From Candidatus Microgenomates bacterium (GTDB lineage Bacteria; Patescibacteriota; Microgenomatia; Levybacterales; UBA12049): a DNA stretch of 56,283 nucleotides. The notes beneath the pieces are model-generated. The model had not been told where the DNA came from. It worked only from the letters and a program-made list of their open reading frames with translations, and ran no database searches. The DNA is taken from positions 1 to 56,283 of the forward strand of contig JANWKV010000038.1 in the NCBI GenBank assembly GCA_025451195.1, written 5' to 3'. Positions within the stretch are counted from its first letter, which is position 1. Each line of letters starts with the position of its first letter. Both the position numbers and the translations under genes were made by a program. Shown one piece after another: positions 35,419-51,843 of this stretch.

Positions 35419-37074
35419 CTACCAATTTTCCCTGAGGTGATCCATGGCGTAGTCAATTGTCCCCCCTACTTTTTTACGCGGATTAAAAATATCATCCGGG
35501 TCAAAAATATTTTTTACTTCTTTAAATAAATCCGTAATTTTTTTACCGTACATTTGCTCCAAATATGGTGTGCGAATAAGCCCGTCATTGTGTTCCCCTG
35601 TGTTTGATCCGTGATATTTATGGATAATCGCGTAAACTTGCTTTGAAATTTCCGGAATTGCTTTCCTGACAGATGGCAGCCTAATGTCCACCAAAGGAAT
35701 AATATGAAAATTTCCATTTCCTACGTGCCCGGCAACAGTAAACGTAAATTCCGGGTGTTTTTTTAGAATATCTGTTACCTGCGTGATTACTTCTACCATA
35801 TCATGAGGATTTATCACAAAGTCATCAATAAAAGCTGCTGTATGTTTGTCTCTGATTTTTTTTCTTAGCAAATTAAAACTTTCACGTCTTACAAGCCAAT
35901 ATTTTTGTTCTTGATCCTCTTCTGCTACTTGTGTTTCCGGGTGAAGCGGCTTTAATTTTTCCTTAAGTGTTGCAACTTTTTCTTCAACTTCCTTCAAATC
36001 ATCACTTGTGAAATCAACTTGCAAGACAAGTTTAGGAAGTTTTCTTCCGGTAAACAAATCAAAAAATGCTCTAAAGAATGCAAACCCTGCCTCTACCATT
36101 CCTTTGAAACCTAATTGCTGTGCAAATTCCGGGAAATATTTGAGCGCCAGCTTTAACGTATTGTCATCATAGCTTTCAAAACTTTCCGGCTTTAGTGGCA
36201 AAACTATGTCTATAATTTGACCCAAATGCGACAAATCATGAAGATAAATAATAAGCATATCGCGGTGTTTATGCACTGGCACTAATTCTATTTCTGCTTC
36301 AAGCATAAACCCAAGGGTACCTTGTGCACCAACCCAAAGTTTTGTCAGGTCAAAAATCTTTTTTTCTTTATCGTAAACATTCCATAAAAAGTACCCCGCA
36401 GAATTTTTTGTTACTTGCGGTTTTGCTTTCATAATTTCTTCATAATTTCCTGTAATAAGCTTATACATTTTTTTATAAACTTCCCCTTCAAAATCTTTTT
36501 GTTCCATTTTTTCTTTCAATTCTTTTTCATTTAATGGCTTCAATGTATAAGTATTACCGTCTTTCAGAACAACTTTTATTTTTTTTACAAAATTTTCTGT
36601 TTTTCCGTATTGCAAAGATTTCTCTCCACCGGAATCATTGTTAACAATCCCACCCATTGCGCAAAGTCCACGGGATGCAGGATACGATGCAAAAATTAAG
36701 TTTTTCTTAAGCGTTTCTACTTCAAAATCCCTGTAAAAAAGTCCTGGTTCTACAGTTCCAACGTTATCTGTAATTTTTGGAGCATGGTTAAAATATTTTC
36801 CAAAGGCAACAATAATTGAATCATTGATTGCCCCCCCACTCATGTCTGTACCTGCTGAGCGCCCGGTGAGTGATAAATTAGGATATTCTTTTTTGTTTTT
36901 TTCTACAAACTTTATAAGATTTTCTACATCTTTCTGATTTTTTGGAAATACAACAACTTGAGGTTTTACCTCAAAAAGGGATGTATCGTGGCTGTATAAC
37001 ATGAGGGTATCATTATCGGTCGAAATGTCGCCCTCTATATTTTTTTTAAGTTCTTCTATAAGTTTTGGATCCAT
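35419..37074 (-). CDS. FAD-linked oxidase (GlcD / D-2-hydroxyacid dehydrogenase-like)
   Basis: RSAGTDMSG, GAQGTLG, GHVGNGNFH, GEHNDG, FDPDDIFNP. Confidence 0.9.
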   Translation of the reverse strand: MDPKLIEELKKNIEGDISTDNDTLMLYSHDTSLFEVKPQVVVFPKNQKDVENLIKFVEKNKKEYPNLSLTGRSAGTDMSGGAINDSIIVAFGKYFNHAPKITDNVGTVEPGLFYRDFEVETLKKNLIFASYPASRGLCAMGGIVNNDSGGEKSLQYGKTENFVKKIKVVLKDGNTYTLKPLNEKELKEKMEQKDFEGEVYKKMYKLITGNYEEIMKAKPQVTKNSAGYFLWNVYDKEKKIFDLTKLWVGAQGTLGFMLEAEIELVPVHKHRDMLIIYLHDLSHLGQIIDIVLPLKPESFESYDDNTLKLALKYFPEFAQQLGFKGMVEAGFAFFRAFFDLFTGRKLPKLVLQVDFTSDDLKEVEEKVATLKEKLKPLHPETQVAEEDQEQKYWLVRRESFNLLRKKIRDKHTAAFIDDFVINPHDMVEVITQVTDILKKHPEFTFTVAGHVGNGNFHIIPLVDIRLPSVRKAIPEISKQVYAIIHKYHGSNTGEHNDGLIRTPYLEQMYGKKITDLFKEVKNIFDPDDIFNPRKKVGGTIDYAMDHLRENW

Positions 37075-38060
37075 TATTTTCTCCCCATCACTTTTCTAAC
37101 TGCTTTTTTTATTGCTCCACTTCCCATGTTATACTTTTCAATCAGTTCTGTCCATTTACCGGATTCTGCAAAAGTATTTTGAAGTCCGATAAATTCCATT
37201 GGCAGAGGATTGTTTTTTGCCAGAATTTCGGCAATTGTCCCGCCTAATCCTCCCATTACCTGATGATCCTCAACTGTTACTACTGCTTTTGTTTTTGAGG
37301 CTAAATCAACTGTAAGCTTTTCATCAAGAGGTTTAATTGTTGGAACATTTACTACCAAAGTTTGAATTTCTGACTCCAACTCTTTTGCCGCTAAAAGTGC
37401 ATAGTAAAGCATGTATCCTGTTGCAAAAATTGTAACCTCAGGATTTTCTGATGTCCAAAAAACTTGCGGGTAGCCTAAATCAAATGGAGTCTCTTCTGTT
37501 GTGATAATTGGAGTTTTATCGCGTGTGAACCTTAAATACATTGGCCCAATATTATTTCCCGCGTATACTGTTATTTTTTTGGCTTCAATTGAATCACAAG
37601 GCACAAATACCTGAATATTTGGCCAACAACGCGTAATTGCAATGTCTTCTGTTGCCTGATGCGTTGCGCCGTCCGGGCCGGTCATTATACCGGAATGGTG
37701 GCCGGCAACTTTTACATTTGCGTTATTGTAAACAATAGTTGTCCTAATTGTTTCCCAATTTTTTCCTGGGCTAAAGGTTGCGTACGACGAGATAAATGGA
37801 ATTTTTCCACTTACCGCCATTCCCGCCGCAATTGCCGACATGTTTTGCTCGGCAACTCCAACATCAAAAAATCTTTCAGGATATTTTTTTTCAAATCCAT
37901 CACACTTTGTTGATTCGGACAAATCTGCGGTAAATACAACAACATTTGGGTTTGTATCTCCAAGCTTAACCAATCCATCACCATACCCGCTTCTTGTTGG
38001 CTTTACCTCAACATCTTGGTCAAATAATTTTGGGTTAAGTTTTAAATTAGGATTAAGCAT
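37074..38060 (-). CDS. Transketolase C-terminal subunit
   Basis: TADLSEST, GVAEQNM, GPDGATHQ, VEDHQ. Confidence 0.95.
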   Translation of the reverse strand: MLNPNLKLNPKLFDQDVEVKPTRSGYGDGLVKLGDTNPNVVVFTADLSESTKCDGFEKKYPERFFDVGVAEQNMSAIAAGMAVSGKIPFISSYATFSPGKNWETIRTTIVYNNANVKVAGHHSGIMTGPDGATHQATEDIAITRCWPNIQVFVPCDSIEAKKITVYAGNNIGPMYLRFTRDKTPIITTEETPFDLGYPQVFWTSENPEVTIFATGYMLYYALLAAKELESEIQTLVVNVPTIKPLDEKLTVDLASKTKAVVTVEDHQVMGGLGGTIAEILAKNNPLPMEFIGLQNTFAESGKWTELIEKYNMGSGAIKKAVRKVMGRK

Positions 38061-38072
38061 AATTTATTTTTT

Positions 38073-38130
38073 TCTTCGAACGAAGTGAGAAGTTTTGATT
38101 TTGAATAGTTCTCACTCTGCTCAAACAATA
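38073..38130. repeat. REP-like inverted element between the transketolase genes
   Basis: TTCGAACGAAGTGAGAA ... TTCTCACTCTGCTCAAA imperfect inverted pair. Confidence 0.7.
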
Positions 38131-38131
38131 T

Positions 38132-38998
38132 TTATAGTGAATTTAATCTATCTTCTATTTTCTTCAAATCTTCCAGTGCAACTTTACCCTGCTCCCCTTT
38201 TGGCGGAGCACCAGGAATATCTGCTACATCCGGCGGATTTCCATGCCAACGGTAATTATTCTCCATAAAGCTTACACCTTTCCCAGGAACTGTTTTTGCA
38301 ATAACTATCACAGGTTTATCCTGCACCTGTTTTGCAAGGTCAATTACTTCAAGAAATGCTTTGATGTCGTTTCCGTCAACTTCCAAAACATGCCAATTAA
38401 ACGATTCGTATTTTGCTTTAAACGGTTCAAGAGGCATAACATTTGAAACGTCTCCATCAATCTGGATATTGTTGTAATCAATAACTTGAATTAAGCGGTT
38501 TAATTTATACTTACCCGCTGCCATTGCGGCTTCCCACGTGTTCCCCTCCTGATGTTCTCCATCCGATGTTACACAATATATATAGTATTCTTTTTTATCC
38601 ATGCGGCAGGCAAGTGCCATTCCAATAGCTTGCGACAGTCCCTCACCAAGCGGCCCGGATGTATTCTCAATTCCGGGAAGAGCGCCACGATGAGGGTGTC
38701 CCTGAAGACGTGAATTAATTTTCCTGAGTGTCTTCAGCTCGTCAAGAGGAAAATAACCGTTTAAAGCCATTGTGCAATATTGCACAGGACAAATATGTCC
38801 ATTTGATAAAACCAAACGGTCTCTTTCTTCCATTGAGGGATTTTTTGGGTCATGGCGCAAAATTTTAAAATAAAAAGCAGTAAAAATATCCGCCATCCCC
38901 AATGGCCCGGCACTATGCCCGGACTTTGCCTCAACTAAGGTTTCTATAATCAATTGACGGACATGGTTTGCCTTTTTTTTTAAATCTAGAATTTCCAT
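38132..38998 (-). CDS. Transketolase N-terminal subunit
   Basis: SGH, LSNGH, LQGHP, SDGEHQEG..WE, GKGVSFME..WHG. Confidence 0.95.
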   Translation of the reverse strand: MEILDLKKKANHVRQLIIETLVEAKSGHSAGPLGMADIFTAFYFKILRHDPKNPSMEERDRLVLSNGHICPVQYCTMALNGYFPLDELKTLRKINSRLQGHPHRGALPGIENTSGPLGEGLSQAIGMALACRMDKKEYYIYCVTSDGEHQEGNTWEAAMAAGKYKLNRLIQVIDYNNIQIDGDVSNVMPLEPFKAKYESFNWHVLEVDGNDIKAFLEVIDLAKQVQDKPVIVIAKTVPGKGVSFMENNYRWHGNPPDVADIPGAPPKGEQGKVALEDLKKIEDRLNSL

Positions 38999-39128: not shown

Positions 39129-40400
39129 TCATATCTTGGAAACTATCATTAAATCAGAAACATTTGATTCAAGCTTATCTGTAAAAATTCCATCTCCTGC
39201 TTCTTTCCAATATTCATAACTATTATCATCATCTAAGTATTTTTTTGCGTCAAGGCTTAACGCATGAGCTTTTACAATAGTTTGCATATCACCCAAAGCG
39301 CCTGTAAAATAGAAAAAATCCGTACCGTCGCTGTCAAAAGAAGCAAGAATTGTTTCGTCTCTTATATAATCCATTCCTGATAAAACCAGCGTTTGATTTC
39401 TCCCGCCTTTCCCCGTACCTACAACTTTTAATGTGGATTCTCCCCCCGCCAGTAAAATCTCACCCAGATTTGTTTTTTCAATTAGCATTTTGCCCAACGT
39501 ATGGGCATCGCCTTGCACTCTATCTGAAAAAATTACCGCTTTGTATCCTAACTCTTTTGCTTTATTTTGCATTGCGGCAAGAGCCGTTTGATTACTAAGC
39601 ATTATAATGTTTGTTACATTTGCAAAATATTTTTCGTCTGTTGGTGTTTGTTCAAAATCTTCAGGAGATAAATCTTTTTCAAGGTTGTATTTTTTCAGAA
39701 TTGCCTGGGTATCCTCCAGCGTATGCTTATCAGGTTCGGTCGGGCCCGATGCAATAACCGACAAATCATTTCCCGGAACATCTGAAAAAATTAAACTTGC
39801 GACTGTTGCGGGATATAAATGGTGCGCAAGCCCCCCGCCTTTTACTTTTGATAAGTGTTTACGGATAACGTTCATCTCAGAAATATCCGCGCCTGACTTA
39901 AGAAGGTCTTTAAAAACCTGAATTAACCTTTCTAAAGGCAGTCTTACCGGAAGCTCAAACATTGCCGATCCGCCTCCGCAAATAACAACCAAAACCAAAT
40001 CCGTTTCCGTTAGATTTTTAATTTTTTCCAAAACCTGTTTTGTATATGCTACATTTGTTTGAGAAGGCAAAGGATGCGTACCTTTTGTGTAATAAATTTG
40101 TTGGAAAGATTCATCAACCAAATCTATGTCAAAACCAACAGTCAAAAGATTACCTAATTTTTTTTCTACAATTTTACAGATTCCGGCGCTACCCTTTCCA
40201 AAACCGATTAAAAAAACCCTATTGAATTTTGAAAGGTCGTAAGTTTTATCTTCTATTTTAAGAGTTTTGTCATTAACGGAAAATTTTGATTCCATAACAT
40301 TTCTTGGCTCAATCGATTTAAAAGCCTCTTCTATAAGGGTGAGTACAACTTTTCGCTGTGGAGTACTCGCCATTTCCTTGAAATTTTTAATTACACCCAT
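39129..40400 (-). CDS. Glycerate kinase type 2 (MOFRL/TtuD family)
   Basis: GFGKG, HPLP, GGGSA, RKHLSKVKGG, SDVPG, IASGPT, GGE, GGRNQ, NVSD. Confidence 0.93.
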   Translation of the reverse strand: MGVIKNFKEMASTPQRKVVLTLIEEAFKSIEPRNVMESKFSVNDKTLKIEDKTYDLSKFNRVFLIGFGKGSAGICKIVEKKLGNLLTVGFDIDLVDESFQQIYYTKGTHPLPSQTNVAYTKQVLEKIKNLTETDLVLVVICGGGSAMFELPVRLPLERLIQVFKDLLKSGADISEMNVIRKHLSKVKGGGLAHHLYPATVASLIFSDVPGNDLSVIASGPTEPDKHTLEDTQAILKKYNLEKDLSPEDFEQTPTDEKYFANVTNIIMLSNQTALAAMQNKAKELGYKAVIFSDRVQGDAHTLGKMLIEKTNLGEILLAGGESTLKVVGTGKGGRNQTLVLSGMDYIRDETILASFDSDGTDFFYFTGALGDMQTIVKAHALSLDAKKYLDDDNSYEYWKEAGDGIFTDKLESNVSDLMIVSKI

Positions 40401-40439: not shown

Positions 40440-43400
40440 TTAATTACTTGGGTTCTTATGGATAAAAGAAGATATCTTGACCAGAATAGTTTTTATGAAG
40501 GGTTTTTCTTTGCTTACTAAAATTCCATAAATAAAAATGAGAACTACTAAAGATATGGTAAAAATAATATATTTTGCTGTTAGGTTTTGAGAAGGCGCTT
40601 TTGTTATATTTTTTACAACCTTTGATTCTTTTGCAATTGATAAGGTTTGGACACCAGATCTTCCATAAATTTCCGGTTCGTACATAAGCGATGCTGTTAC
40701 GGGCGGAACAATAAACGTCCCTTCCGAAACAACTCTTGCCCTATATGTATATGTTTGTTCCCCGGCTTTAATATTGTAAAGTGATAAAATCATTCCGTTT
40801 TCTGTAACTTGAGTATCCGAAACGCCAAAATTTGTATAATATTGGTCGGCTGTCTTATCAAAAGAGCTATTGTTAAAATTTTCGTTTATCGGCACCATTC
40901 CTGCCGGCAACTGGTCCTCAATAACCGCGTAATTATCGCTGGACTTTAAACCACCAACGGTAATCATTACTATAGCGGTATCTCCAACTCCAAGGGAATA
41001 TTGCGCTCCTTTTTCATTTACATATTCTCTTTTTACATAAAGTCCGTGATCTAATGCTTTTGCATTTTTATCTGTCCTTAATTGATTAACAATCAAGGTT
41101 TCATACAAATTACCGGAACCGTTTTTAGTTACCAAAACATTAAAATTATCGGATTTTATTGGAATTTTTACATCATTAATTTCCTGAGATGACGAATTAA
41201 CATCTCCGGATGTAATTGATTTATTATTTGAAGAAATAGAATAAGAATATTTTGGAGTTAACTCATTATTCGTTTTTGCAAAATCTGTTAATGCTCTTAT
41301 AACCTGAGAGGTTGCAAAAGTATTGGTCCAATAATCATAACTTCTGCTTTGAGAAAGATATCTTACTGCTTTTTGAATAAGCGTTTTATCCCCACCCGCC
41401 AAAAGCATTGCTCTTACCGCAAGTGCAGTTGAACCGTCTATTGATCCAAAATTTTGTTTTGTCCCTTGCTGCCAAAAAACAGAATCACCCTGACTTACTG
41501 CCATTTGAGTAAGCCTGTTTAAACCGTTAATTGTTGGGTCCGTAAAACCGCTTAGGTAATTCGTCATGACTTCAAGAGCCAAAATATCCGGACTAAGATT
41601 TGTATTGTCCGACAGCAAAGTTGAATTCTTATCTCCAAGAATTGCCAAGCCGTACATTTTGGCAATTTTATCCTCCATTGAATAATTTATTTCTTTACCC
41701 AAACTGTAATCATAATAGGTATTTGTTTTAAGAAAATTTTCTGCATTAGTTAAAATAGAATCATCAACTTTAGCGCCTGCATTTTTTGCGGCAACTAAAT
41801 ATTCAACAACATAAGCCGTAACGAATGGGTCAGATCTTCCTGAAAACCACCACGGCCATCCTCCGTCTCCCTCCTGAAGGCTGGACAGATTTTCTATTCC
41901 TTTTTGAATAATATTGTCAATATTTTTATCCTTCAAAGAATTTGCAAATAAATCAGGATTCGTTTTGGCAATTACAGCAGGCACAAATCTGCTAGTTGTT
42001 TGTTCAACACAACCGTACGGGTAGTTAATAAGATAATCCATTGCTGTTGGCAAAATCCCGACCAAGGTTGGGGAGAGAGATAGCGTAACGGAAGACTTAG
42101 ATCTATCCGAATCGGAATTTAGAGAAACGTTAAAGTCTTTAGTTCCCTCACCTGTCTGAGCTGTTTTCTCGGAAAATGCAAAAGATCTAATTGGAATTTG
42201 TTCGGTAACAATATCTCCTTTATTTTTGTCATTTACAGGTGTCGCCGAAAATACAATTTTTGCATTTGGATTTTCTTTTGTTGCTTTTATTTTCCAGTAA
42301 ACCTGTTCTATGCTATTTGATTTAACCAAATAATTGTTAAAGTTTTTACTTTCTATAGAACCACTGTCAAATGAAAGCTTTATATTAAAATTGGAATCCG
42401 AATTTGTAAAGTTTTCAACAAGAGCGGAAATTACGGCTTCATCGCCAACGCGAAGAATGTTTGGCAAAATTGGCCTGACAATATAATCTTTTGTTTCAAC
42501 AATGTCTATTGTTGTTTGTCCAACCTTTGTGTCTTGTGTATCTCCAACAGCAACAAGAGTCCAAGTGGTTAAATTATCAGGCAGAACAAAACTCACATTT
42601 GCATTTCCGGATGAGTCTGTATGAATTGACGGATTCCAGTAAGCCACGTCTTTAAAAACCGTCCTGCTTAACCCCTTTTGGTTATGGACCCAAATTCCGT
42701 TTGCGAAAAATGTATGGTAATTTTCTACTTCTAAATTATAAACTTTAAATTTGCCCGCCTGCCATTCAATTGACGACACTGGGAATATTTTTCCATCAGA
42801 AAACGTTAACTTATCTCCAATAGAAATATCTCCGGCCTGAATCCAGGAATTGTTTACAAACAAAATATGATCAGGTGTTATTTTTAAGTTTCCATTAATT
42901 ATTAAATAACCCGGATCAATAGCAGAATATATCTTTGTAACTCTTGCCTTAATCTTGTGTAAAGCTCCTGTACTGCTTGTTAAAACATAATCTCCTACTT
43001 TTACATCTTCGATATTTTTTGTACTTCCGTTTGCCATTAGAATTTTTGTGCCCGGGGCAAAACATCCGCCTCCACCACCCGGCTGGTAAGTTTGTATCGC
43101 TTGAAGAGAATGTGCAGTTTGTGTGTAATTATATCTTTCATGCCAAAATGTATCAAAAATGTCACCGAGTTTAGAATCGGATAATTCATATAGTGCCTTG
43201 TCAACAGACCAAAATGTAACTTCGGCAGAAACAGGGTTACCCGTATAATCTTTTGTCTGTATCTTTACATTAACCGTATCCCCCGGCCCATATTTTTTAC
43301 TATCCGGAAAAACGTTTATTAGCAATCTTTTTTCATTAGGAGAAACATGAAGCTGCGTGTTACCGGAATCCAAATCCGAAGAGGAAAAACTGGAAACTAC

Positions 43401-45500
43401 GGCAAACATGTCCGGAATATCCGTATCTTTAAGGGGTATGTCAACTTTTGCCGTTTTACCGCTTAAATGAACTACCTGAAACCCGTCAACTCTTGCTCTC
43501 TCCAAAGATAAGAATATATCTCTATCTGCTATCGATGAGTATATTGTTAAATGCGCTGTGTCTGTAGGAAGATAAGATTGTTTATCCGCAACTACCGAAA
43601 TATTGTTTGTCTGGCCGTTAACCGTATAAGATGTGTCTTCCGAAGAAACATATGAATAAAATGCCTTTGAAATTGTATTTCCTATACCATCCTGCCCTTG
43701 TACCGTTATTGTATAAGATCCTACCTTTGTTGGTGTAAAAGAAATAGTTGTGTTACCGCTACTATCTGTAGTTCCGGTAACGCTTGGCAAATCTTCTTCT
43801 TCCTTTTTATAACTTGGGTACTTCTGATTTGGGTCGTATGTTATAATCCAGTTTTCCCTGTGAATTTTTGCCGTAAGCCCAATACTACTCACTTTGCCAT
43901 TTCTGTAAGCCACAAGAGAAATTGGTAAATTTATTTGAGTCCCAACATTTGACGAGTAATCCGAATCTTTTCTGTAAATACCATATTCACCCGCATAAAC
44001 AATAATATTTTTATCAGCATATGGCGGCTCTTGCGAACCGTCATCCAATGTTGCCTCAATTGTAAATATTTGGGACTTTCCATCATTTCCTTTAAGTTTT
44101 GTATCAAGTTGTATTGTAGCTTCTCCCCTGTTGTTTAATACAGCTGTACCTTCTAAAACTTTTTGGCTTTCGCCATATGAATAAGGACTTGAATACCAGA
44201 AGTTGTTTAAAAAATTTCCGGATAAATTTTTTTGATCCTGAAGATATTCATACTCGTAATAACTCGCGGATGTTATTAAGTATTTTACTTTTTGCCCAAT
44301 GAGTGGCTGTCCGGAAAAATATGTACCGTTTATAGTAAATGATGTTTTATCGCCCGAAATGTATTCCGTCTTAGGAATCGTTAAAGTTATGTAAGACTGC
44401 GGCTTTTTATAATATTCGACATCAAAAGAAACGTAGTTAGAGCTGTAATCTCCATCGTAGTAAGTCGAACTGTTATCCTGCTGATCAAGGGTAATTGTCA
44501 AATAGTAATATCCTACATTTATATCCGAAGGCAATTGGAATTGACCATCTAAAGTCCCGTCTGCTGAAACCGGAATTGATTTTTCATATAATGTATTGTT
44601 TGCCTGGAAATCTGAAGTAATTTTAACTGTTGCATTACCTGTGGGGATTGAATAAACGGCATCGTCATCGTCTCTTATGATTGCTTTAAAATATACTGTG
44701 TCCCCCGGCTTATAAAGAGGTCTGTCTGTAAATATAAAATATTTTGAATTTTGAGTTTTTGAAGCAAATGACGTATATGAGTAACCCGTATTCAAATACT
44801 TTAGATTTATCGGTACAATAGCCCTGTCATCACTTTGAGCAATTAACGCTACGTCTATATCCGATGAAATATTCGTATGGGCGATTCCATTATTATCAAA
44901 GTTTACTCTTTGTAATTCTTTTCTGGAGTTTTCAAGGTTGTAAAGAATTACTTGAGCATTTGTTATACTTCTTTTTGTTTTATAATCCTGACCCCAAAAT
45001 ATAATTTCATTATTCCCTTCTTTTGCCAAAACCCCCAAATTTGATCTAACTACAAAAGCATCCGTATTTATCCCATTTATATTTATTTTTACGTACCAAA
45101 TACCTGTATTGTCCAGTGGGAGAAGTATTTTGCTTTGCGAATTATTTGAAGTGTTTATTTGTTGATAAAAAGTTTTAATAAAAGTTATTTTCGATGGATC
45201 AGGTGTTTTTTGTATCTGTTGACCTTTACTGTCATGGGTTAAATAATCCAAAACAGCATCATCATTTGATTTATATAAATCCACCTTTGCGTTTCCGGAT
45301 ATTTGGTATCCCCCTACAGAAATTGAAGGCTCGCCGGTTGACGCAAGGGAAATAACTCCTCCGGTACTGGAAGATTGCCCATTTGAGTTTGAATAAATGT
45401 AAATTTGTCCGTGAGCTTGCTGCCTAAACTTTGATACAAAAAGGAAAATGCTCCCAAAAACTAAGCAAATTGCTAATAGAAGAATGAAACGGAATTTCAT
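40440..45500 (-). CDS. Alpha-2-macroglobulin family protein with Hint domain insertion and C-terminal TM
   Basis: FTDRPLYKPGDTV, DK..Y.PG, YWNP...LPDNLTTW, YPYGCVEQTTS thioester motif, Q..DGGW.W, DQLPAG, MYEPEIYGRS. Confidence 0.95.
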   Translation of the reverse strand: MKFRFILLLAICLVFGSIFLFVSKFRQQAHGQIYIYSNSNGQSSSTGGVISLASTGEPSISVGGYQISGNAKVDLYKSNDDAVLDYLTHDSKGQQIQKTPDPSKITFIKTFYQQINTSNNSQSKILLPLDNTGIWYVKININGINTDAFVVRSNLGVLAKEGNNEIIFWGQDYKTKRSITNAQVILYNLENSRKELQRVNFDNNGIAHTNISSDIDVALIAQSDDRAIVPINLKYLNTGYSYTSFASKTQNSKYFIFTDRPLYKPGDTVYFKAIIRDDDDAVYSIPTGNATVKITSDFQANNTLYEKSIPVSADGTLDGQFQLPSDINVGYYYLTITLDQQDNSSTYYDGDYSSNYVSFDVEYYKKPQSYITLTIPKTEYISGDKTSFTINGTYFSGQPLIGQKVKYLITSASYYEYEYLQDQKNLSGNFLNNFWYSSPYSYGESQKVLEGTAVLNNRGEATIQLDTKLKGNDGKSQIFTIEATLDDGSQEPPYADKNIIVYAGEYGIYRKDSDYSSNVGTQINLPISLVAYRNGKVSSIGLTAKIHRENWIITYDPNQKYPSYKKEEEDLPSVTGTTDSSGNTTISFTPTKVGSYTITVQGQDGIGNTISKAFYSYVSSEDTSYTVNGQTNNISVVADKQSYLPTDTAHLTIYSSIADRDIFLSLERARVDGFQVVHLSGKTAKVDIPLKDTDIPDMFAVVSSFSSSDLDSGNTQLHVSPNEKRLLINVFPDSKKYGPGDTVNVKIQTKDYTGNPVSAEVTFWSVDKALYELSDSKLGDIFDTFWHERYNYTQTAHSLQAIQTYQPGGGGGCFAPGTKILMANGSTKNIEDVKVGDYVLTSSTGALHKIKARVTKIYSAIDPGYLIINGNLKITPDHILFVNNSWIQAGDISIGDKLTFSDGKIFPVSSIEWQAGKFKVYNLEVENYHTFFANGIWVHNQKGLSRTVFKDVAYWNPSIHTDSSGNANVSFVLPDNLTTWTLVAVGDTQDTKVGQTTIDIVETKDYIVRPILPNILRVGDEAVISALVENFTNSDSNFNIKLSFDSGSIESKNFNNYLVKSNSIEQVYWKIKATKENPNAKIVFSATPVNDKNKGDIVTEQIPIRSFAFSEKTAQTGEGTKDFNVSLNSDSDRSKSSVTLSLSPTLVGILPTAMDYLINYPYGCVEQTTSRFVPAVIAKTNPDLFANSLKDKNIDNIIQKGIENLSSLQEGDGGWPWWFSGRSDPFVTAYVVEYLVAAKNAGAKVDDSILTNAENFLKTNTYYDYSLGKEINYSMEDKIAKMYGLAILGDKNSTLLSDNTNLSPDILALEVMTNYLSGFTDPTINGLNRLTQMAVSQGDSVFWQQGTKQNFGSIDGSTALAVRAMLLAGGDKTLIQKAVRYLSQSRSYDYWTNTFATSQVIRALTDFAKTNNELTPKYSYSISSNNKSITSGDVNSSSQEINDVKIPIKSDNFNVLVTKNGSGNLYETLIVNQLRTDKNAKALDHGLYVKREYVNEKGAQYSLGVGDTAIVMITVGGLKSSDNYAVIEDQLPAGMVPINENFNNSSFDKTADQYYTNFGVSDTQVTENGMILSLYNIKAGEQTYTYRARVVSEGTFIVPPVTASLMYEPEIYGRSGVQTLSIAKESKVVKNITKAPSQNLTAKYIIFTISLVVLIFIYGILVSKEKPFIKTILVKISSFIHKNPSN
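42681..43064 (-). other. Hint domain (bacterial intein-like, BIL-A type), 128 aa, within the alpha-2-macroglobulin
   Basis: Block A CFAPGTKILMANG, block B ITPDH, block F VYNLEVENYHTFFANG, block G WVHN; the next residue is Gln, not Cys/Ser/Thr; no endonuclease domain. Confidence 0.93.
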
Positions 45501-46648: not shown

Positions 46649-47068
46649 CTAGATTACTGCAGGATCTTCCTTTTTCCCTGATTTGAAATCCAAAGAAATA
46701 GAATTTATACAATACCTTTTTCCTGTTTCCGTTGGACCGTCGTCAAAAATATGCCCTAAATGGCTTCCGCAATTTGCACATAAAACTTCTGTTCTGTGCA
46801 TAAAAAGAGAGTTATCTTCGCGGAATTCAACAGCCCCTTTTAAAGATTTGTCAAAGGACGGCCATCCGCAGTCGGAATCAAATTTGGTGTCTGAAGAAAA
46901 CAAATTTGCCCCGCATGCACCACATACATACATTCCGCTCTCAAAATTTTGATAAAACTTACCGGTGCCGGGCATCTCTGTCCCCTTTTCTCTCAAGACC
47001 TTATATTGTTCGTCTGTCAATTTTTTCTTCCAATAATCTTCCGGTTTATTTTTAAAATCATCTGACAT
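46649..47068 (-). CDS. msrB: Peptide-methionine (R)-S-oxide reductase
   Basis: [35 protein letters not shown]. Confidence 0.97.
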
Positions 47069-47220: not shown

Positions 47221-47583
47221 ATGACAGATAAAAATTCCAAATTAAAAATCGAAGATATAAAAGTAGGTAAGGGAGACGGAGTAAAAGACGGTGATACGGT
47301 TGTAATTCACTATACAGGCTGGCTGGAAGATCCTTCGGCTCCCGGCTCAGGACAAGTTGGTGCAAAATTTGACAGCAGTAAAGACCGGCGACTGCCCTTT
47401 GAAGTAAAAATCGGAGTTGGTTATGTTATACAAGGTTGGGATTTGGGAGTTATTGGTATGAAAAAAGGCGGAAAACGAAAATTAACTATTCCTTATGAAA
47501 TGGGTTATGGAAAATACGGCACAGATGGAATACCTGGTTTTGCAACTTTAATTTTTGAACTTGAACTTCTTAAGATAAAGTAA
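47221..47583 (+). CDS. FKBP-type peptidyl-prolyl isomerase
   Basis: HYTGWL...KFDSS, VIQGWD.G..GMK.GGKRKL.IP..GYG, TLIFELEL. Confidence 0.95.
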   Translation: MTDKNSKLKIEDIKVGKGDGVKDGDTVVIHYTGWLEDPSAPGSGQVGAKFDSSKDRRLPFEVKIGVGYVIQGWDLGVIGMKKGGKRKLTIPYEMGYGKYGTDGIPGFATLIFELELLKIK

Positions 47584-48721: not shown

Positions 48722-50041
48722 TTATTTGCTTATTCGTCGTGCGTCTCTCCATCCGATATCCGTGCGGTAGTGCAAATTATTTCCTTCAACAGAAATTAAT
48801 TTCATAGCTTTATACGCCTTCTGTCGTGCTTCGTGAATATTTTTTCCCTCACCTGTAACATAAAATATTCTTCCTCCGTTTGCGTAAAATTTATTACTAT
48901 GGATTTTAATTCCTGCTCCATAAATTTTAACATCCGGAATTTTTGATGCCTTTTCCAAACCAAAAATTTGTTTCCCTTTTACATTTGAATAATCTCCGGG
49001 ATAACCATTTGAAGAACCCGCAACAACTATTCGTGCTTTATTATCCGTTTCTATTTTGATTGAATCAAGTTCTTCATTAATAATTGCTTCTCCAAGTTCA
49101 AAAAAATCATTTTTAATTCCCGGTATAATAACCTGTGCTTCCGGATCTCCCCATCTGGCATTAAATTCTATAATATAAACTTTTCTATCTATAATGATTC
49201 CACCCAAATATAAAATTCCTTTATAAGGCCTGGCCTCAATTTTTAGTCCGTCCAATGTTTTTTTAAATATTTTTTCCGTTTGATCTTTTATATTTTTATC
49301 TATAACAAGAGGCGGAGTTGAACATCCCATTCCACCGGTATTTTCCCCTTTATCTCCGTCGAGTGCTCTTTTATGATCTTGTGCGTATCCAATTGTCTGA
49401 AAAGTTTTTCCATCGGATATTGCAAATGCGGAAAATTCTTCCGCAAGTCCGGTTTTTGCCTGTAGCCATTTTTCAAGTAAAAAAGTTTTTGCCGAATCTC
49501 CAAATTTTTGCAGTTCTATTATTCTTTCTTCCGCTTCCGCGTTGTTTTTTGCGGGCAATGCTCCTTTGCCCTCTGCCAAACCCGACGCTTTAACAAACCA
49601 AGATTGATCTTTTTGTTTTTGCAAATACGCAATTGCTGTTTCTGTGTCGTCAAATATCTGGTATTCGGGCTGGGAAATATTATGGCGGGACATAAATTCC
49701 CGGGACCATGCTTTATTCCATTCTATTTCTCCGGCAAGTTTTGACGGACCCATTGCCATGATTCCATTTCTTAATAACTCGTCAACTAAACCAACCGCAA
49801 CAGCATTATCCTGGGCAACATCAACAAAACTTACATTTTCTTTTTTACAAATCTCTATTATTTCTTTAACACTTGTAGTTTTAAGATGGGTATAAATTTC
49901 CACGGGTTTTTTTGAAGAATGTTCCATGTAATCATTGCCCGGTATCGCGATAATTTTGGAAACATCTGGACTTTGGGAATATTTATCAACCAAAACAGAT
50001 CCCCTGCCCCCCGCGTCAATTACAACAATTGTGTTTTTCAT
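48722..50041 (-). CDS. purD: Phosphoribosylamine-glycine ligase
   Basis: VKASGLAEGKG, QDHKRALDGDKGENTGGMG, EFNARWGDPEAQ, GGR, YRTDIG. Confidence 0.95.
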   Translation of the reverse strand: MKNTIVVIDAGGRGSVLVDKYSQSPDVSKIIAIPGNDYMEHSSKKPVEIYTHLKTTSVKEIIEICKKENVSFVDVAQDNAVAVGLVDELLRNGIMAMGPSKLAGEIEWNKAWSREFMSRHNISQPEYQIFDDTETAIAYLQKQKDQSWFVKASGLAEGKGALPAKNNAEAEERIIELQKFGDSAKTFLLEKWLQAKTGLAEEFSAFAISDGKTFQTIGYAQDHKRALDGDKGENTGGMGCSTPPLVIDKNIKDQTEKIFKKTLDGLKIEARPYKGILYLGGIIIDRKVYIIEFNARWGDPEAQVIIPGIKNDFFELGEAIINEELDSIKIETDNKARIVVAGSSNGYPGDYSNVKGKQIFGLEKASKIPDVKIYGAGIKIHSNKFYANGGRIFYVTGEGKNIHEARQKAYKAMKLISVEGNNLHYRTDIGWRDARRISK

Positions 50042-50048
50042 AATTACT

Positions 50049-50084
50049 TGTTATTCCGAGCGAACAAAGTGAGTCGAGGAATCT
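50049..50084 (+). repeat. REP-like palindrome downstream of the GIY-YIG gene
   Basis: TGTTATTCCGAGCG-AACAAAGTG-AGTCGAGGAATCT; related to 54788-54815. Confidence 0.7.
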
Positions 50085-50087
50085 ATC

Positions 50088-50381
50088 TCAACTAACTAAA
50101 CTTTCGATTGAAATTTCTCGGAATTCAGGATTTATTTTGGTTATAAGTTTTATTTTCTTTTTTCTGTTCCAATTTTTTAATTGCTTTTCTCTTAGAATTG
50201 ATGATTGTGGGTTAGAGAATGTTTCATAATAAATTAGAACATTTATATTATATTTTTTTGTGAAACCTTCAACAACTTTTTGTTTATGTTCCCAAACTCT
50301 CTTAATTAGATTACTTGTAATTCCTATATAGAATTTCCCCGACAGACTCCTAAGGATATATACGAAATACTGTTTGATCAT
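50088..50381 (-). CDS. GIY-YIG nuclease family protein (stand-alone, 97 aa)
   Basis: YFVYIL...FYIGITSNL.KRVWEH...FTKKY...REKQLKNWNR.KK..LI...NP. Start re-called to ATG at 50381. Confidence 0.93.
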   Translation of the reverse strand: MIKQYFVYILRSLSGKFYIGITSNLIKRVWEHKQKVVEGFTKKYNINVLIYYETFSNPQSSILREKQLKNWNRKKKIKLITKINPEFREISIESLVS

Positions 50382-50395
50382 AAAACAACATGAAT

Positions 50396-50423
50396 GGGTC
50401 CCTCGACTTTTCCCGGGATGATA
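50396..50423 (-). repeat. REP-like palindrome upstream of the GIY-YIG gene (inverted relative to 50049-50084)
   Basis: Reverse complement TATCATCCCGGGAAAAGTCGAGGGACCC resembles GTCATCCCGAGCGAAGTCGAGGGATCTC at 54788. Confidence 0.7.
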
Positions 50424-50427
50424 ATAA

Positions 50428-51843
50428 CTACACTTTAAAGTTGATATTTTTAGCGTGTTCTCCAATGTCTATCGGGTATTTGCCTGTAAAACAACTCGTA
50501 CAAAATTTTTCTTCCGGAATCCCGGTTGCTTTAATCAATCCTTCATAGGATAAATATTGCAATGTATCTGCCCCGACAAAATTTCTGATCTCTTCAACAC
50601 TCATTTGGGCTGCTATTAATTCCTGCTGTGTTGGCGTTGCAATTCCGTAAAAATCCGGATACTTGACTTCAGGAGATGCGGAAAGTAAGTGTACTTCTTT
50701 TGCTCCTGCATTTCTCACCATATGAACAAGCTTTTTACTTGTTGTACCCCTTACTATTGAATCGTCAATAACGATAACTCTTTTTCCTTTTAATATTTCT
50801 TTCATTGGAATAAGTTTAAGCTTTACGTCTTTTTCGCGCATTACATGTACGGGATTTATAAATGTTCGGTGGATATAACTGTTTTTTAAAAGTCCGTGAT
50901 CAAATTTTATCCCTGATTCTTCTGCATATCCAAGACTTGCCGGTATTGCACTGTTTGGCACAGGCACAACAATATCCGCATCAATTTTTTTCTCCCTTGC
51001 CAGTTGCCTGCCCATTTCCCGTCTAATTTCATTAATACTCTTCCCGTACAAAAAACTGTCCGGCCTGGAAAAGTAAACGAACTCAAAAATATCAAGCTTT
51101 TCAACAGTTTTTTTAGCAATCTGGTAACTATGTAAGCCGTTATCATCTATAACAATCATTTCTCCCGGTTTAACATCCCTGACAAATTCTGCGTTAATAC
51201 TATCCAGTCCGCAAGTCTCGGAAGATATCGCGTAACCTTCATCGTTATTTAATTTCCCGATTGAAAAAGGCCTTATTCCATGCGCATCGCGAAGACCAAT
51301 GACTTTATTTTTTGTAAGAATAACCAAAGAAAATGCCCCTGTAAAAAGAGGGAAGCTTTTTTCGATTGCTTCTTCAACAGACATTTCTTTTAGCATATAA
51401 AATTCAATTACTTCCTGTATTAACTCGCTATCATTATGGTGGTCTAAACCCTTACCTGTATTTTTTATGAGGAATTCCCGTAGTTTGTCTACTGTTGGTA
51501 AATTTCCATTATGTGCAACTGCAACAAGATTGTGTTCTGTATAGCAAGGTTGAAAATGGCTAAATGGACTTCCAAAAGTAGAATATCTATTATGCCCTAT
51601 TGCCATGTGACCGGGAAGTTTATTGAGGGCCTCTTCCGTATGCACGCTTGCAACAAGGCCTGGTCCTTTATTTGTCCTGATTGTTTCCCCATCTGCGGTA
51701 CTTATACCTGTTGCCTCTTGTCCTCTGTGTTGAAGTGCCCAAAGTGCGGTGCAAACAAGTCTTGCTGCGTAATGAGTTTTTGTATATACGCCAAAAACTG
51801 CACATTTTTCGCTCAGTTCCGGAGTAAAATCTTGAGAGATCAT
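50428..51843 (-). CDS. purF: Amidophosphoribosyltransferase
   Basis: Propeptide then CAVFG, LQHRGQE, GHNRYST, HNGN, FEFVYFSRPDS, DDSIVRGTT, C.SCFTG.YP. Confidence 0.97.
   Translation of the reverse strand: MISQDFTPELSEKCAVFGVYTKTHYAARLVCTALWALQHRGQEATGISTADGETIRTNKGPGLVASVHTEEALNKLPGHMAIGHNRYSTFGSPFSHFQPCYTEHNLVAVAHNGNLPTVDKLREFLIKNTGKGLDHHNDSELIQEVIEFYMLKEMSVEEAIEKSFPLFTGAFSLVILTKNKVIGLRDAHGIRPFSIGKLNNDEGYAISSETCGLDSINAEFVRDVKPGEMIVIDDNGLHSYQIAKKTVEKLDIFEFVYFSRPDSFLYGKSINEIRREMGRQLAREKKIDADIVVPVPNSAIPASLGYAEESGIKFDHGLLKNSYIHRTFINPVHVMREKDVKLKLIPMKEILKGKRVIVIDDSIVRGTTSKKLVHMVRNAGAKEVHLLSASPEVKYPDFYGIATPTQQELIAAQMSVEEIRNFVGADTLQYLSYEGLIKATGIPEEKFCTSCFTGKYPIDIGEHAKNINFKV

Follow-up and report, generated by a model that had tools for sequence, protein, structure and literature searches.

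The contig JANWKV010000038.1 of a Candidatus Microgenomates bacterium (assembly GCA_025451195.1), analysed over its entire length of 56,283 nucleotides and referred to below as the window, encodes a membrane-anchored alpha-2-macroglobulin (A2M) with a Hint domain inserted in its bait loop. By sequence and by fold, this insert is a type-A bacterial intein-like (BIL) domain. The combination of A2M and Hint is not sporadic: the domain is fixed at one site of the protein and has been inherited in hundreds of related species across the phylum, and it is evolutionarily uncoupled from the thioester of the A2M. The residues that flank the Hint domain suggest, tentatively, that it may excise itself from the protein and that the two halves of the A2M may be re-joined through an amine of the C-terminal flank, which would leave an ordinary trap.

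Domain architecture and nature of the insert

One stop-free open frame on the reverse strand (40440-45500) is translated into a protein of 1686 aa (P0001), a member of the A2M/thioester-containing superfamily of the bacterial type I, with a chain of macroglobulin (MG) domains that includes a bait-region domain. In addition to the domains listed in Table 1, Pfam detects MG2 (residues 253-345), bMG3 and bMG6 (residues 516-615). The thioester domain (TED) is recognized by Pfam and contains the CxEQ motif in the form of CVEQ (residues 1164-1167), which predicts a thioester. A search with residues 640-1060 retrieved 819 proteins at E <= 1e-3, and the best 120 of these, all of which carry PF07591 together with A2M domains and show 52-62% identity, are the homologues referred to throughout. 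Among the 113 homologues that are 1600-1900 aa long, hydropathy analysis finds a C-terminal transmembrane-like segment in every one (113/113) and an N-terminal hydrophobic segment in 104. P0001 has both, and is therefore an extracytoplasmic, membrane-tethered A2M; no clear lipobox was seen in its N-terminus.

The Hint domain lies between the bait-region domain and the following A2M (MG) domain, and the translated sequence around it reads ...QPGGGGG↓CFAPGTKILMANG...ITPDH...VYNLEVENYHTFFANGIWVHN↓QKGLSRTVFKDVAYWNP, where arrows mark the junctions. The Pfam model PT-HINT (PF07591) matches residues 827-941 (E 4e-14, 53.4 bits against a cut-off of 27.7), Hom_end_hint matches residues 813-842, and the NCBIfam model of the intein C-terminal region (TIGR01443) matches residues 919-940 (2e-7). 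The top sequence match in the Protein Data Bank (PDB) is 2lwy, a "bacterial intein-like domain" (5.5e-12 with the single sequence, 4e-20 with a profile), and a profile search of the same database also matches BIL2 of Tetrahymena (E 2.7e-16). These matches to family models and PDB entries are far beyond chance. The catalytic set consists of Cys813, Thr875..His878 and His939-Asn940. Because the domain combines Cys1, T..H and a C-terminal His-Asn with the absence of a nucleophile at the following (+1) position, it is a type-A BIL as this class is defined in the relevant passages of two reviews (PMC4031507, PMC7765530). At only 128 aa, it has no room for a homing endonuclease. The initial annotation had placed a Hint domain at Cys813-Asn940 of an A2M with an intact CVEQ (Cys1164), and both its coordinates and the string it quoted were reproduced here, in agreement with the Pfam and PDB matches. 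Its description of a BIL-type Hint with all catalytic residues, Gln at +1 and no homing endonuclease is likewise borne out by the sequence, the length of 128 aa and the match to 2lwy.

Structure prediction is consistent with these assignments. A model of residues 440-1639, built from a 43-row alignment (mean predicted local distance difference test score, pLDDT, 81.7; predicted TM-score, pTM, 0.54), has as its best Foldseek matches the Salmonella A2M 4u48 (E 1e-51), the Escherichia coli A2M (ECAM) 5a42, C5, A2ML1 and insect TEP1. In this model the Hint domain is confident (pLDDT of 10-residue blocks, 72-91), and pLDDT falls below 50 on either side of it, at residues 798-811 and 943-950. With regard to the disordered, protease-cleavable bait of this superfamily, the observations are these low-pLDDT linkers and the poly-Gly loop found in relatives. 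A separate model of the Hint domain (residues 803-950; pLDDT 89.3, pTM 0.83) is most similar to 2lwy, the BIL of Clostridium thermocellum (TM-score 0.80/0.85, root-mean-square deviation 1.7 Å), followed by Tetrahymena BIL2 (0.80-0.82), mini-inteins (0.67-0.77) and Hedgehog 1at0 (0.65).

Other identities of the insert were considered and rejected. An ordinary mobile intein is contradicted by the non-nucleophilic +1 residue (Gln941 where a class 1 intein has Cys, Ser or Thr), by the lack of an endonuclease and by a Hint tree that tracks the host tree; as for mobility, the Hint is uniformly 127-129 aa long and groups by host, yet its presence or absence does vary. Sterol transfer of the Hedgehog type was rejected because the Hint is not followed by a sterol-recognition region and matches the fold of 1at0 less well. 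The PT-HINT domains of polymorphic toxins (PF07591) directly precede a C-terminal toxin domain and release it. The A2M insert resembles them in that PT-HINT is its best Pfam model, well above the gathering score, but a toxin-releasing function was rejected because Pfam places the A2M, TED and bMG10 domains, and no toxin domain, behind it.

Conservation of the catalytic and flanking residues

In an alignment that took in all 120 homologues, Cys813, Phe814, Thr875, His878, His939 and Asn940 are each present in 120/120, and the length of the Hint stays within 127-129 aa. On the N-terminal side, Gly811 is found in 118/120 and Gly812 in 120/120; on the C-terminal side, Lys942 and Arg946 are both present in 120/120 and Gly943 in 119/120, and the motif FKDTAYWNP shortly past the junction is invariant. 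The +1 position is occupied by Gln (78), Asp (21), Glu (17), Asn (3) or Ala (1), with a nucleophile in 0/120. The initial annotation had asked whether the insertion site and the non-nucleophilic +1 are conserved, and they are: the site is fixed and the +1 residue is Q, D, E, N or A throughout. The C, E and Q of CVEQ are each kept in 119/120 homologues, the remaining row being a gap.

A wider sample gives a similar picture. Residues 780-1045 were compared with 1.84 billion cluster representatives, which yielded 399 matches at E <= 1e-30; most of the best 150 of these are 1,600-1,800 aa long and span the Hint and the A2M domain. In 131 single-Hint representatives, restricted to complete Hint matches that do not lie at a protein end, Cys1 and His-Asn are universal (131/131), Gly-Gly precedes the Hint at positions -2/-1 in 123/131 and Lys occupies +2 in 127/131; the +1 residue is Gln (45), Asp (43), Glu (19), Gly (14), Ser (3), Lys (3), Asn (2), Leu (1) or Ala (1). 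Similarly, a scan of loci detected the Hint motif in 43, and 41 of these have Gly-Gly at -2/-1; two (L076, L091) are over-extended artefacts, leaving 41 valid loci, and L075 has no complete motif. In the valid loci, +1 is Asp (16), Gln (11), Glu (10), Ser (2), Asn (1) or Gly (1), and Lys is at +2 in 37/41, the other 4 having it at +3. Nucleophiles at +1 are thus uncommon but do occur, as Ser in 3/131 representatives and 2/41 loci.

While the rest of the protein has diverged by approximately 40-60%, the catalytic residues have all been kept, and no degenerate Hint copy was seen among the 120 homologues and 131 representatives. Among the 113 homologues longer than 1600 aa, mean pairwise identity is 0.588 for the Hint and about the same, 0.562, for the whole protein, which means that Hint and host evolve at one pace. 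This pattern suggests that the Hint chemistry is under purifying selection.

The flanks of the Hint can be summarized as GG↓C...HN↓xK, with Gly-Gly and the Lys at +2 invariant or nearly so. No Lys was found in any loop of the examined Hint-less relatives, i.e. the Lys accompanies the Hint. In non-A2M Hints of the same family, too, the C-terminal junction is followed by Lys, as in L044 (VHN↓VK), L048 (VHN↓KPP) and tandem copies (VHN↓KGG↓CF). Tandem arrays of 2-5 complete related Hints occur in P0209, P0256, P0238, P0243, P0242, P0266 and P0234, with up to 12 matched Hint stretches in P0238. Their copies are divided only by Lys-Gly-Gly(-Gly) linkers (...GGG↓CF..VHN↓KGG↓CF..VHN↓KGGGG↓CF...), and the arrays often directly follow an N-terminal leader, with almost no extein between copies.

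Distribution and evolutionary history

Where names were given among the homologue matches listed, they were Daviesbacteria, Woesebacteria, Gottesmanbacteria, Woykebacteria and Beckwithbacteria. As the queries for both homologue sets (residues 640-1060 and 780-1045) contained the Hint, these sets are no guide to the frequency of Hint-less forms. Within the class of the window, 65/401 genomes have a match and 31/401 have Hint and A2M contiguously; in a sample of the whole phylum the corresponding numbers are 45/401 and 20/401, the contiguous cases being hand counts of rows that span both parts of the query. In the family to which the window belongs, Hint and A2M occur together in 0/24 genomes, and in the window's own genome (1.17 Mb, 62 contigs, 85% complete) this is the only PT-HINT match. 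A scan of prokaryotes with one genome per species kept 80 loci. Of these, 39 have the Hint (L063-L101) and are titled Microgenomates, WWE3, Moranbacteria, Parcubacteria, Uhrbacteria, Peribacteria, Saccharibacteria, Collierbacteria and Roizmanbacteria; the other 41 are Hint-less A2Ms (L102-L142), mostly of Chloroflexota/Anaerolineae and Peribacteria. Several loci in third-party MAG assemblies, including L064, L066, L067, L073 and L074, carry the titles Gammaproteobacteria, Nevskiaceae, Bdellovibrionales or Bathyarchaeia, which look unreliable; the contig of L074 is the same as one that is placed in the window's class (G114:C17).

The loop that harbours the Hint is also found without it. Hint-bearing forms read ...GGG↓CF...HN↓(Q/E/D)KG..R at the place where Hint-less relatives have ...AEGGGG-EG--ISDR (L034) or ...GGSGGG-GGGGNDTSR (L036, L037). 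A poly-Gly loop precedes the motif R..F.DTAYWNP by a few residues in A2Ms of Chloroflexota, Peribacteria and Saccharibacteria, and a run of 5-7 Gly residues forms the core of the bait loop in Hint-less A2Ms of Chloroflexota/Anaerolineae, Peribacteria, Saccharibacteria and Microgenomatia (L103-L137, L034-L037). Since Hint-less relatives share the poly-Gly loop at this place, the loop is ancestral and the Hint sits inside it. The initial annotation took the bait to have been replaced by an autoprotease; its placement of the Hint between the bait-region and MG domains stands, but the Hint is contained in a poly-Gly loop that Hint-less relatives also have and does not replace the bait. At the DNA level, runs of GGN codons flank the Hint, and in L036 and L037, which lack it, the sequence looks as if the Hint had been deleted between two of these runs. 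A poly-Gly bait might target Gly-Gly endopeptidases, or it may be a mere linker.

A host tree, built from flanking A2M sequence after removal of the Hint columns, contains three A2M clades with Hint-less members nested in each: L034 and L035 in a clade of ~1,700-aa proteins, L036 and L037 in a clade of ~2,100-2,235-aa proteins, and L042 in the third. At least 7 changes of Hint state are needed on this tree, and well-supported branches force 6 of these; once outgroups are included, the minimum rises to 9, and 6 are again forced. A tree of the Hint sequences groups by host clade with 3 changes, the minimum possible, which 0/200 shuffles reach, and gives the same sister pairs as the host tree. 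When 38 non-A2M Hints were included, all 36 A2M Hints fell in one group (SH-aLRT 94), along with 1/38 of the non-A2M Hints (L044). L038 and L040 were left out of one set of relatives because the anchor motif was not found. The co-divergence of the A2M Hints with their hosts fits one old insertion followed by losses, and we infer from these sequences that the Hint entered the ancestral poly-Gly loop in a single old insertion, descended vertically and was later lost at least 4-5 times.

The non-A2M Hint L044 (G326:C47) lies in a surface protein encoded by a 654-aa open reading frame, with an N-terminal transmembrane segment, the Hint (LST↓CF...VHN↓VKL), Ig-like repeats and a C-terminal transmembrane segment. 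Because it is grouped inside the A2M Hint clade, its Hint may be a secondary transfer from an A2M gene.

Relation to the thioester and to known activation sites

The CxEQ motif is present in the first two A2M clades, including the Hint-less L034-L037. It is absent from the complete Hint-bearing genes L054, L055 and L056, which belong to the third clade and a lone lineage, and for L054 and L056 Pfam reports no TED or bMG10 match; L057 was left out of this tally. The Hint is thus kept with or without the thioester, and the thioester with or without the Hint, which speaks against the Hint existing to arm the TED. The coupling of Hint and CVEQ thioester that the initial annotation proposed is not upheld by this distribution.

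In the A2M-like clade of the same class to which L038-L043 and L054-L056 belong, no CxEQ was found in any complete gene examined, and some members keep the Hint. L038, L054 and L056 were scanned with Pfam, and neither TED nor bMG10 was detected.

Profile alignments relate the insertion site to the activation sites of characterized macroglobulins. In the profile that was used (A3), the Hint ends at position 136, and the positions of activation sites are approximate. Its positions 142-233 align to the C3b alpha' chain from residue 15, 142-238 to C5 765-858, 135-237 to human A2M 722-826, and 157-239 to ECAM chain positions 954-1035; aligned to ECAM as a single sequence, the post-Hint segment gave only a spurious repeat-protein match. 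Relative to the C3b alpha' chain, the C-terminal junction of the Hint maps ~10 residues beyond the first residue; in human A2M and ECAM it maps inside the bait or at the bait's end. The site of the Hint is therefore that of the bait or the anaphylatoxin domain.

Proposed processing of the bait loop and alternatives

The reading that we favour, and that may quite possibly be correct although we hold it with reserve, is that the Hint excises itself and the halves of the A2M are re-joined through the amine of Lys942 or Gln941. This would take place after export and folding of the cell-surface A2M. An N-to-S acyl shift at Cys813 would generate a Gly812~Cys813 thioester, with Gly812 as the predicted donor, and cyclization of Asn940 would cut the Hint from Gln941. 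In the absence of Cys, Ser or Thr at +1, an amine of the C-terminal flank would then resolve the thioester. If this is the epsilon-amine of Lys942, the product would be an isopeptide, the bond reported for BIL2 of Tetrahymena; if it is the alpha-amine freed on Gln941, a peptide would form by the route proposed for type-A BILs. The 14-kDa Hint would thereby be removed, the halves would be covalently joined by a short Gly-rich loop like that of Hint-less relatives, and the matured protein would be an ordinary bait-triggered thioester trap. The analysis shows the architecture, the conserved residues, the phylogenetic pattern and that Hint and thioester are independent of each other; we infer each of the chemical steps, the identity of the nucleophile and the final product alike.

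This proposal is favoured because the Gly-Gly donor side is shared with BIL2 and a Lys is invariant at +2. Passages on BIL2 in PMC8616854 describe an isopeptide between the epsilon-amino group of Lys and a Gly-Gly C-terminus, the conjugation of Gly-Gly-ended ubl4 to ubl5 and Ras without ATP, and a nucleophilic Lys placed at the N-terminal junction. For type-A BILs, the corresponding passages of PMC4031507 give an N-terminal thioester, cyclization of Asn and attack of the freed amine on the thioester, with ligation as the result. The poly-Gly loops of Hint-less members of the three A2M clades, and of Chloroflexota and Peribacteria, are about as long as the predicted spliced product, and a continuous Gly loop is, to judge from these sequences, probably the working state of the host A2M. 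In the structural models, a confident Hint hung on two low-confidence linkers would also suit self-excision, and so would a Hint that is independent of the TED thioester, a chemistry apparently under purifying selection and a Lys that accompanies the Hint.

Several points weigh against this proposal. BILs yield mainly N- and C-cleavage products and little splicing (as stated in parts of PMC4031507 and PMC7664689), and one review describes type-A BILs, in the passage concerned, as unable to ligate at all (PMC7765530). For clean removal, Ser, Thr or Cys at +1 would be efficient (PMC7664689); such residues occur in 0/120 homologues, 3/131 representatives and 2/41 loci, so selection for ligation is not evident from this position. 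The Lys at +2 might serve the cyclization of Asn or folding and not nucleophilic attack, and the ancestral poly-Gly loop accounts in part for the Gly-Gly ahead of the Hint. In addition, the long retention of the Hint without a homing endonuclease hints at a benefit to the host that self-excision leaves unexplained.

The other serious candidate, which was the reading of the initial annotation and which we regard as doubtful and less well supported than self-excision, is that the Hint cuts one or both junctions without re-ligation, giving a self-firing or two-chain A2M. The equivalent of bait cleavage would untether what follows the bait, cause the conformational change and expose CVEQ with no attacking protease involved. 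Such firing could be constitutive or chemically cued, and the protein could serve as an adhesin that binds covalently, as a tag in the manner of an opsonin or as a trap armed in advance. The predominance of cleavage products among BILs, as given in portions of PMC4031507, PMC7664689 and PMC7765530, is what this would predict, and it would agree with the avoidance of a +1 nucleophile in homologues, representatives and loci, with the Hint in the anaphylatoxin/bait slot and its C-terminal junction near the start of the C3b alpha' chain, with the invariance of Arg946 and FKDTAYWNP just past that junction, and with the predicted flexibility of both linkers. Because the section of PMC4498604 on ECAM ascribes its activation to the untethering of the disordered bait upon cleavage, self-cleavage could in principle fire the trap. 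However, L054, L055 and L056 carry the Hint without CxEQ (L054 and L056 also without TED) and close Hint-less relatives keep the thioester; constitutive activation would waste a thioester that is kept in 119/120 homologues; the invariant Lys at +2 is left unexplained; and the Hint was lost independently at least 4-5 times with only a Gly loop left behind, which implies that triggering by a protease in the ordinary way is sufficient. The Lys at +2 and the Gly-Gly at -2/-1, whose conservation the initial annotation had not remarked on, and the amine-ligating relatives would seem to point to re-ligation at least as much as to a cleavage that fires the trap.

An improbable alternative is intermolecular acyl transfer, in which the Gly812~Cys813 thioester would be a second warhead that delivers the 812-residue N-terminal part to an external amine. 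A Gly-Gly thioester is the least hindered donor, which counts in its favour, and related Hints in other surface proteins and in arrays linked by Lys-Gly-Gly would suit serial cross-linking. Acceptors imagined include a Lys of the attacking enzyme, a neighbouring surface protein, the cell wall and the surface of a host, and the activity would be comparable to the dispensing of single ubiquitins by BIL2, or to the Hedgehog transfer to cholesterol. BIL2 links its Gly-Gly N-extein to Lys of several substrates, according to part of PMC8616854. On the other hand, an invariant Lys lies two residues off the junction in the same chain, and the intramolecular reaction should win; no conserved partner gene adjoins the gene in the window, the recurrent neighbours seen elsewhere (Memo-like, BiPBP_C) suggest no acceptor, and there is no obvious reason to move the large MG1-6 body. 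Covalent attachment of the episymbiont to its host, as suggested in the initial annotation, is conjecture. Lastly, the Hint could be an unreactive passenger, a folded bead that the flexible loop tolerates. A Hint fold has its N and C termini side by side, which with the predicted flexible linkers would make the insert structurally tolerable, but the catalytic residues are all kept in 120/120 homologues and 131/131 representatives despite ~40-60% divergence elsewhere and the Hint evolves at the pace of its host, and we consider this very improbable.

Comparison with known systems

Type-A BIL domains were reportedly the subject of Amitai 2003 and Dassa 2004. The A2M Hint shares with them Cys1, the block-B T..H, His-Asn, the absence of a +1 nucleophile, a length of ~130 aa without endonuclease and a secreted or surface host protein, and a type-A BIL (2lwy) is its best match in both sequence and fold. 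In contrast to the type-A BILs described, in a passage of PMC7765530, in hypervariable regions of non-conserved proteins, it occupies a fixed site in a conserved multidomain family, has co-diverged with its host across the phylum and is followed by an invariant Lys at +2. The BIL2 domain of Tetrahymena thermophila BUBL1 (6y75, 6tmm) is close in profile and fold and also has an N-terminal flank that ends in Gly-Gly. However, it comes from a ciliate, is intracellular and lies between ubiquitin-like domains, whereas the A2M Hint is extracytoplasmic, its Lys acceptor is putative, and Pfam finds no ubiquitin-like domain ahead of it; its flanks hold Gly-Gly and the invariant Lys at +2, the latter being a candidate for resolving the thioester.

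With the Salmonella A2M (4u48) and E. coli ECAM/YfhM, P0001 has in common the MG chain, the bait-region domain, a TED with CxEQ and a C-terminal MG domain. Those proteins are inner-membrane periplasmic lipoproteins with a plain disordered bait, as described in part of PMC4498604; P0001 instead has a C-terminal transmembrane segment, as do 113/113 homologues, where they have an N-terminal lipoprotein anchor, and a poly-Gly loop with a Hint. Complement C3/C4/C5 are comparable in that the Hint stands at the position of the anaphylatoxin domain, with its C-terminal junction near the start of the alpha' chain. In complement, removal of a small domain at this point activates C3 and C5, but this is done by an external convertase and not by autoprocessing, and the inserts are unrelated in fold.

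The initial annotation knew of no characterization of this architecture, and no published combination of a macroglobulin with a BIL or Hint domain was found in the literature searched; the nearest papers, on inteins and thioesters or on inteins in the candidate phyla radiation, were judged unrelated from their listing. The passage of PMC9793634 that mentions A2M genes of Patescibacteria, as possible protection against host proteases, does not refer to a Hint, nor does the portion of PMC13059738 in which the structure of the Salmonella A2M is cited. The two component families are each known, and automated annotations (precomputed Pfam lists) already place Hint and A2M domains side by side. What sets it apart from known BILs is the fixed site, the conserved protein and the vertical inheritance; what sets it apart from known A2Ms is a predicted autoprocessing domain in the trigger loop.

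Genomic neighbourhood and other A2M-like genes

According to the annotation of its neighbours, no conserved gene partner adjoins the A2M gene of the window. The surrounding genes are ordinary housekeeping genes: a split transketolase (N- and C-terminal open reading frames), a DUF4147/MOFRL glycerate-kinase-like protein, an FAD oxidase, MsrB (SelR), an FKBP isomerase and PurD- and PurF-like proteins. No tRNA was found in the window. Among 18 loci of relatives, 9 have a Memo-like protein (PF01875) directly downstream of the A2M (L034, L035, L038-L041, L043, L054, L055), and the L055 protein is a fusion with a PGA_cap domain. Upstream of the A2M in the long clade (L036, L037, L050) lies a gene for a 234-aa protein with a penicillin-binding protein C-terminal domain (BiPBP_C). 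Neither the Memo-like nor the BiPBP_C gene adjoins the gene in the window. The same genome has a second, weak A2M-domain match (L003; G000:C21:15433-15606, forward strand; E 4e-4, below the Pfam cut-off) in a 998-codon frame broken by one TAA, which may be a degraded or very divergent A2M-like gene.

Table 1. Positions in the window of the A2M gene, its domains and motifs, and neighbouring stretches
Feature	Position	Strand	Basis
Whole gene P0001, membrane-anchored A2M	40440..45500	-	open frame, Pfam and fold match
N-terminal hydrophobic segment, residues ~4-23, signal peptide or signal anchor	45432..45491	-	Kyte-Doolittle 19-aa window maximum 2.86
A2M bait-region domain A2M_BRD, residues 635-773	43182..43598	-	PF07703, E 5e-11
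Flexible pre-Hint linker, residues 798-812, ending in Gly808-Gly812	43065..43109	-	low pLDDT and conservation
Type-A BIL (Hint) domain, Cys813-Asn940, 128 aa	42681..43064	-	Pfam, PDB matches, fold, conservation
C-terminal flank Gln941-Lys942-Gly943-Leu-Ser-Arg946	42663..42680	-	conservation in 120 homologues
Post-bait A2M (MG) domain, residues 953-1041, opening with FKDxAYWNP	42378..42644	-	PF00207, 1.4e-15
Thioester motif Cys1164-Val-Glu-Gln1167 in TED	42000..42011	-	sequence and TED match 1151-1259
C-terminal MG domain bMG10, residues 1486-1610	40671..41045	-	PF17973, 1.2e-20
C-terminal transmembrane anchor, residues ~1644-1663, then short basic tail	40512..40571	-	hydropathy maximum 2.77
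Neighbour stretch	37074..38998	-	housekeeping genes
Neighbour stretch	39129..40400	-	housekeeping genes
Neighbour stretch	46649..47068	-	housekeeping genes
Neighbour stretch	47221..47583	+	housekeeping genes
Neighbour stretch	48722..51843	-	housekeeping genes

Implications

Traps that are armed by another's protease have their textbook example in A2M and complement-type proteins. Here, a predicted autoprocessing domain has long been kept in the trigger loop of such a protein across a phylum of ultrasmall bacteria, which raises the question of whether the loop cleaves itself, heals itself through a Lys isopeptide or transfers its acyl group. Any of these outcomes would add to what is known: a wider range of bacterial Hint chemistry, an example of a conditional or branched bait, or an extracellular ligation or cleavage module of 128 aa with the signature GG↓C...HN↓xK. 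Related Hints, tandem arrays among them, were also flagged on the surfaces of Patescibacteria, whose surface biology is largely unknown. It is conceivable, though we think it rather unlikely, that the GG↓C...HN↓xK Hints of Patescibacteria are a prokaryotic, extracytoplasmic counterpart of BUBL, i.e. Gly-Gly to Lys ligases independent of ATP, of E1, E2 and E3 enzymes and of sortase. If so, the A2M would acquire an isopeptide-branched bait, or its bait loop would become a reactive warhead or self-firing trigger, and the tandem Lys-Gly-Gly arrays would provide for the serial covalent cross-linking of surface proteins.

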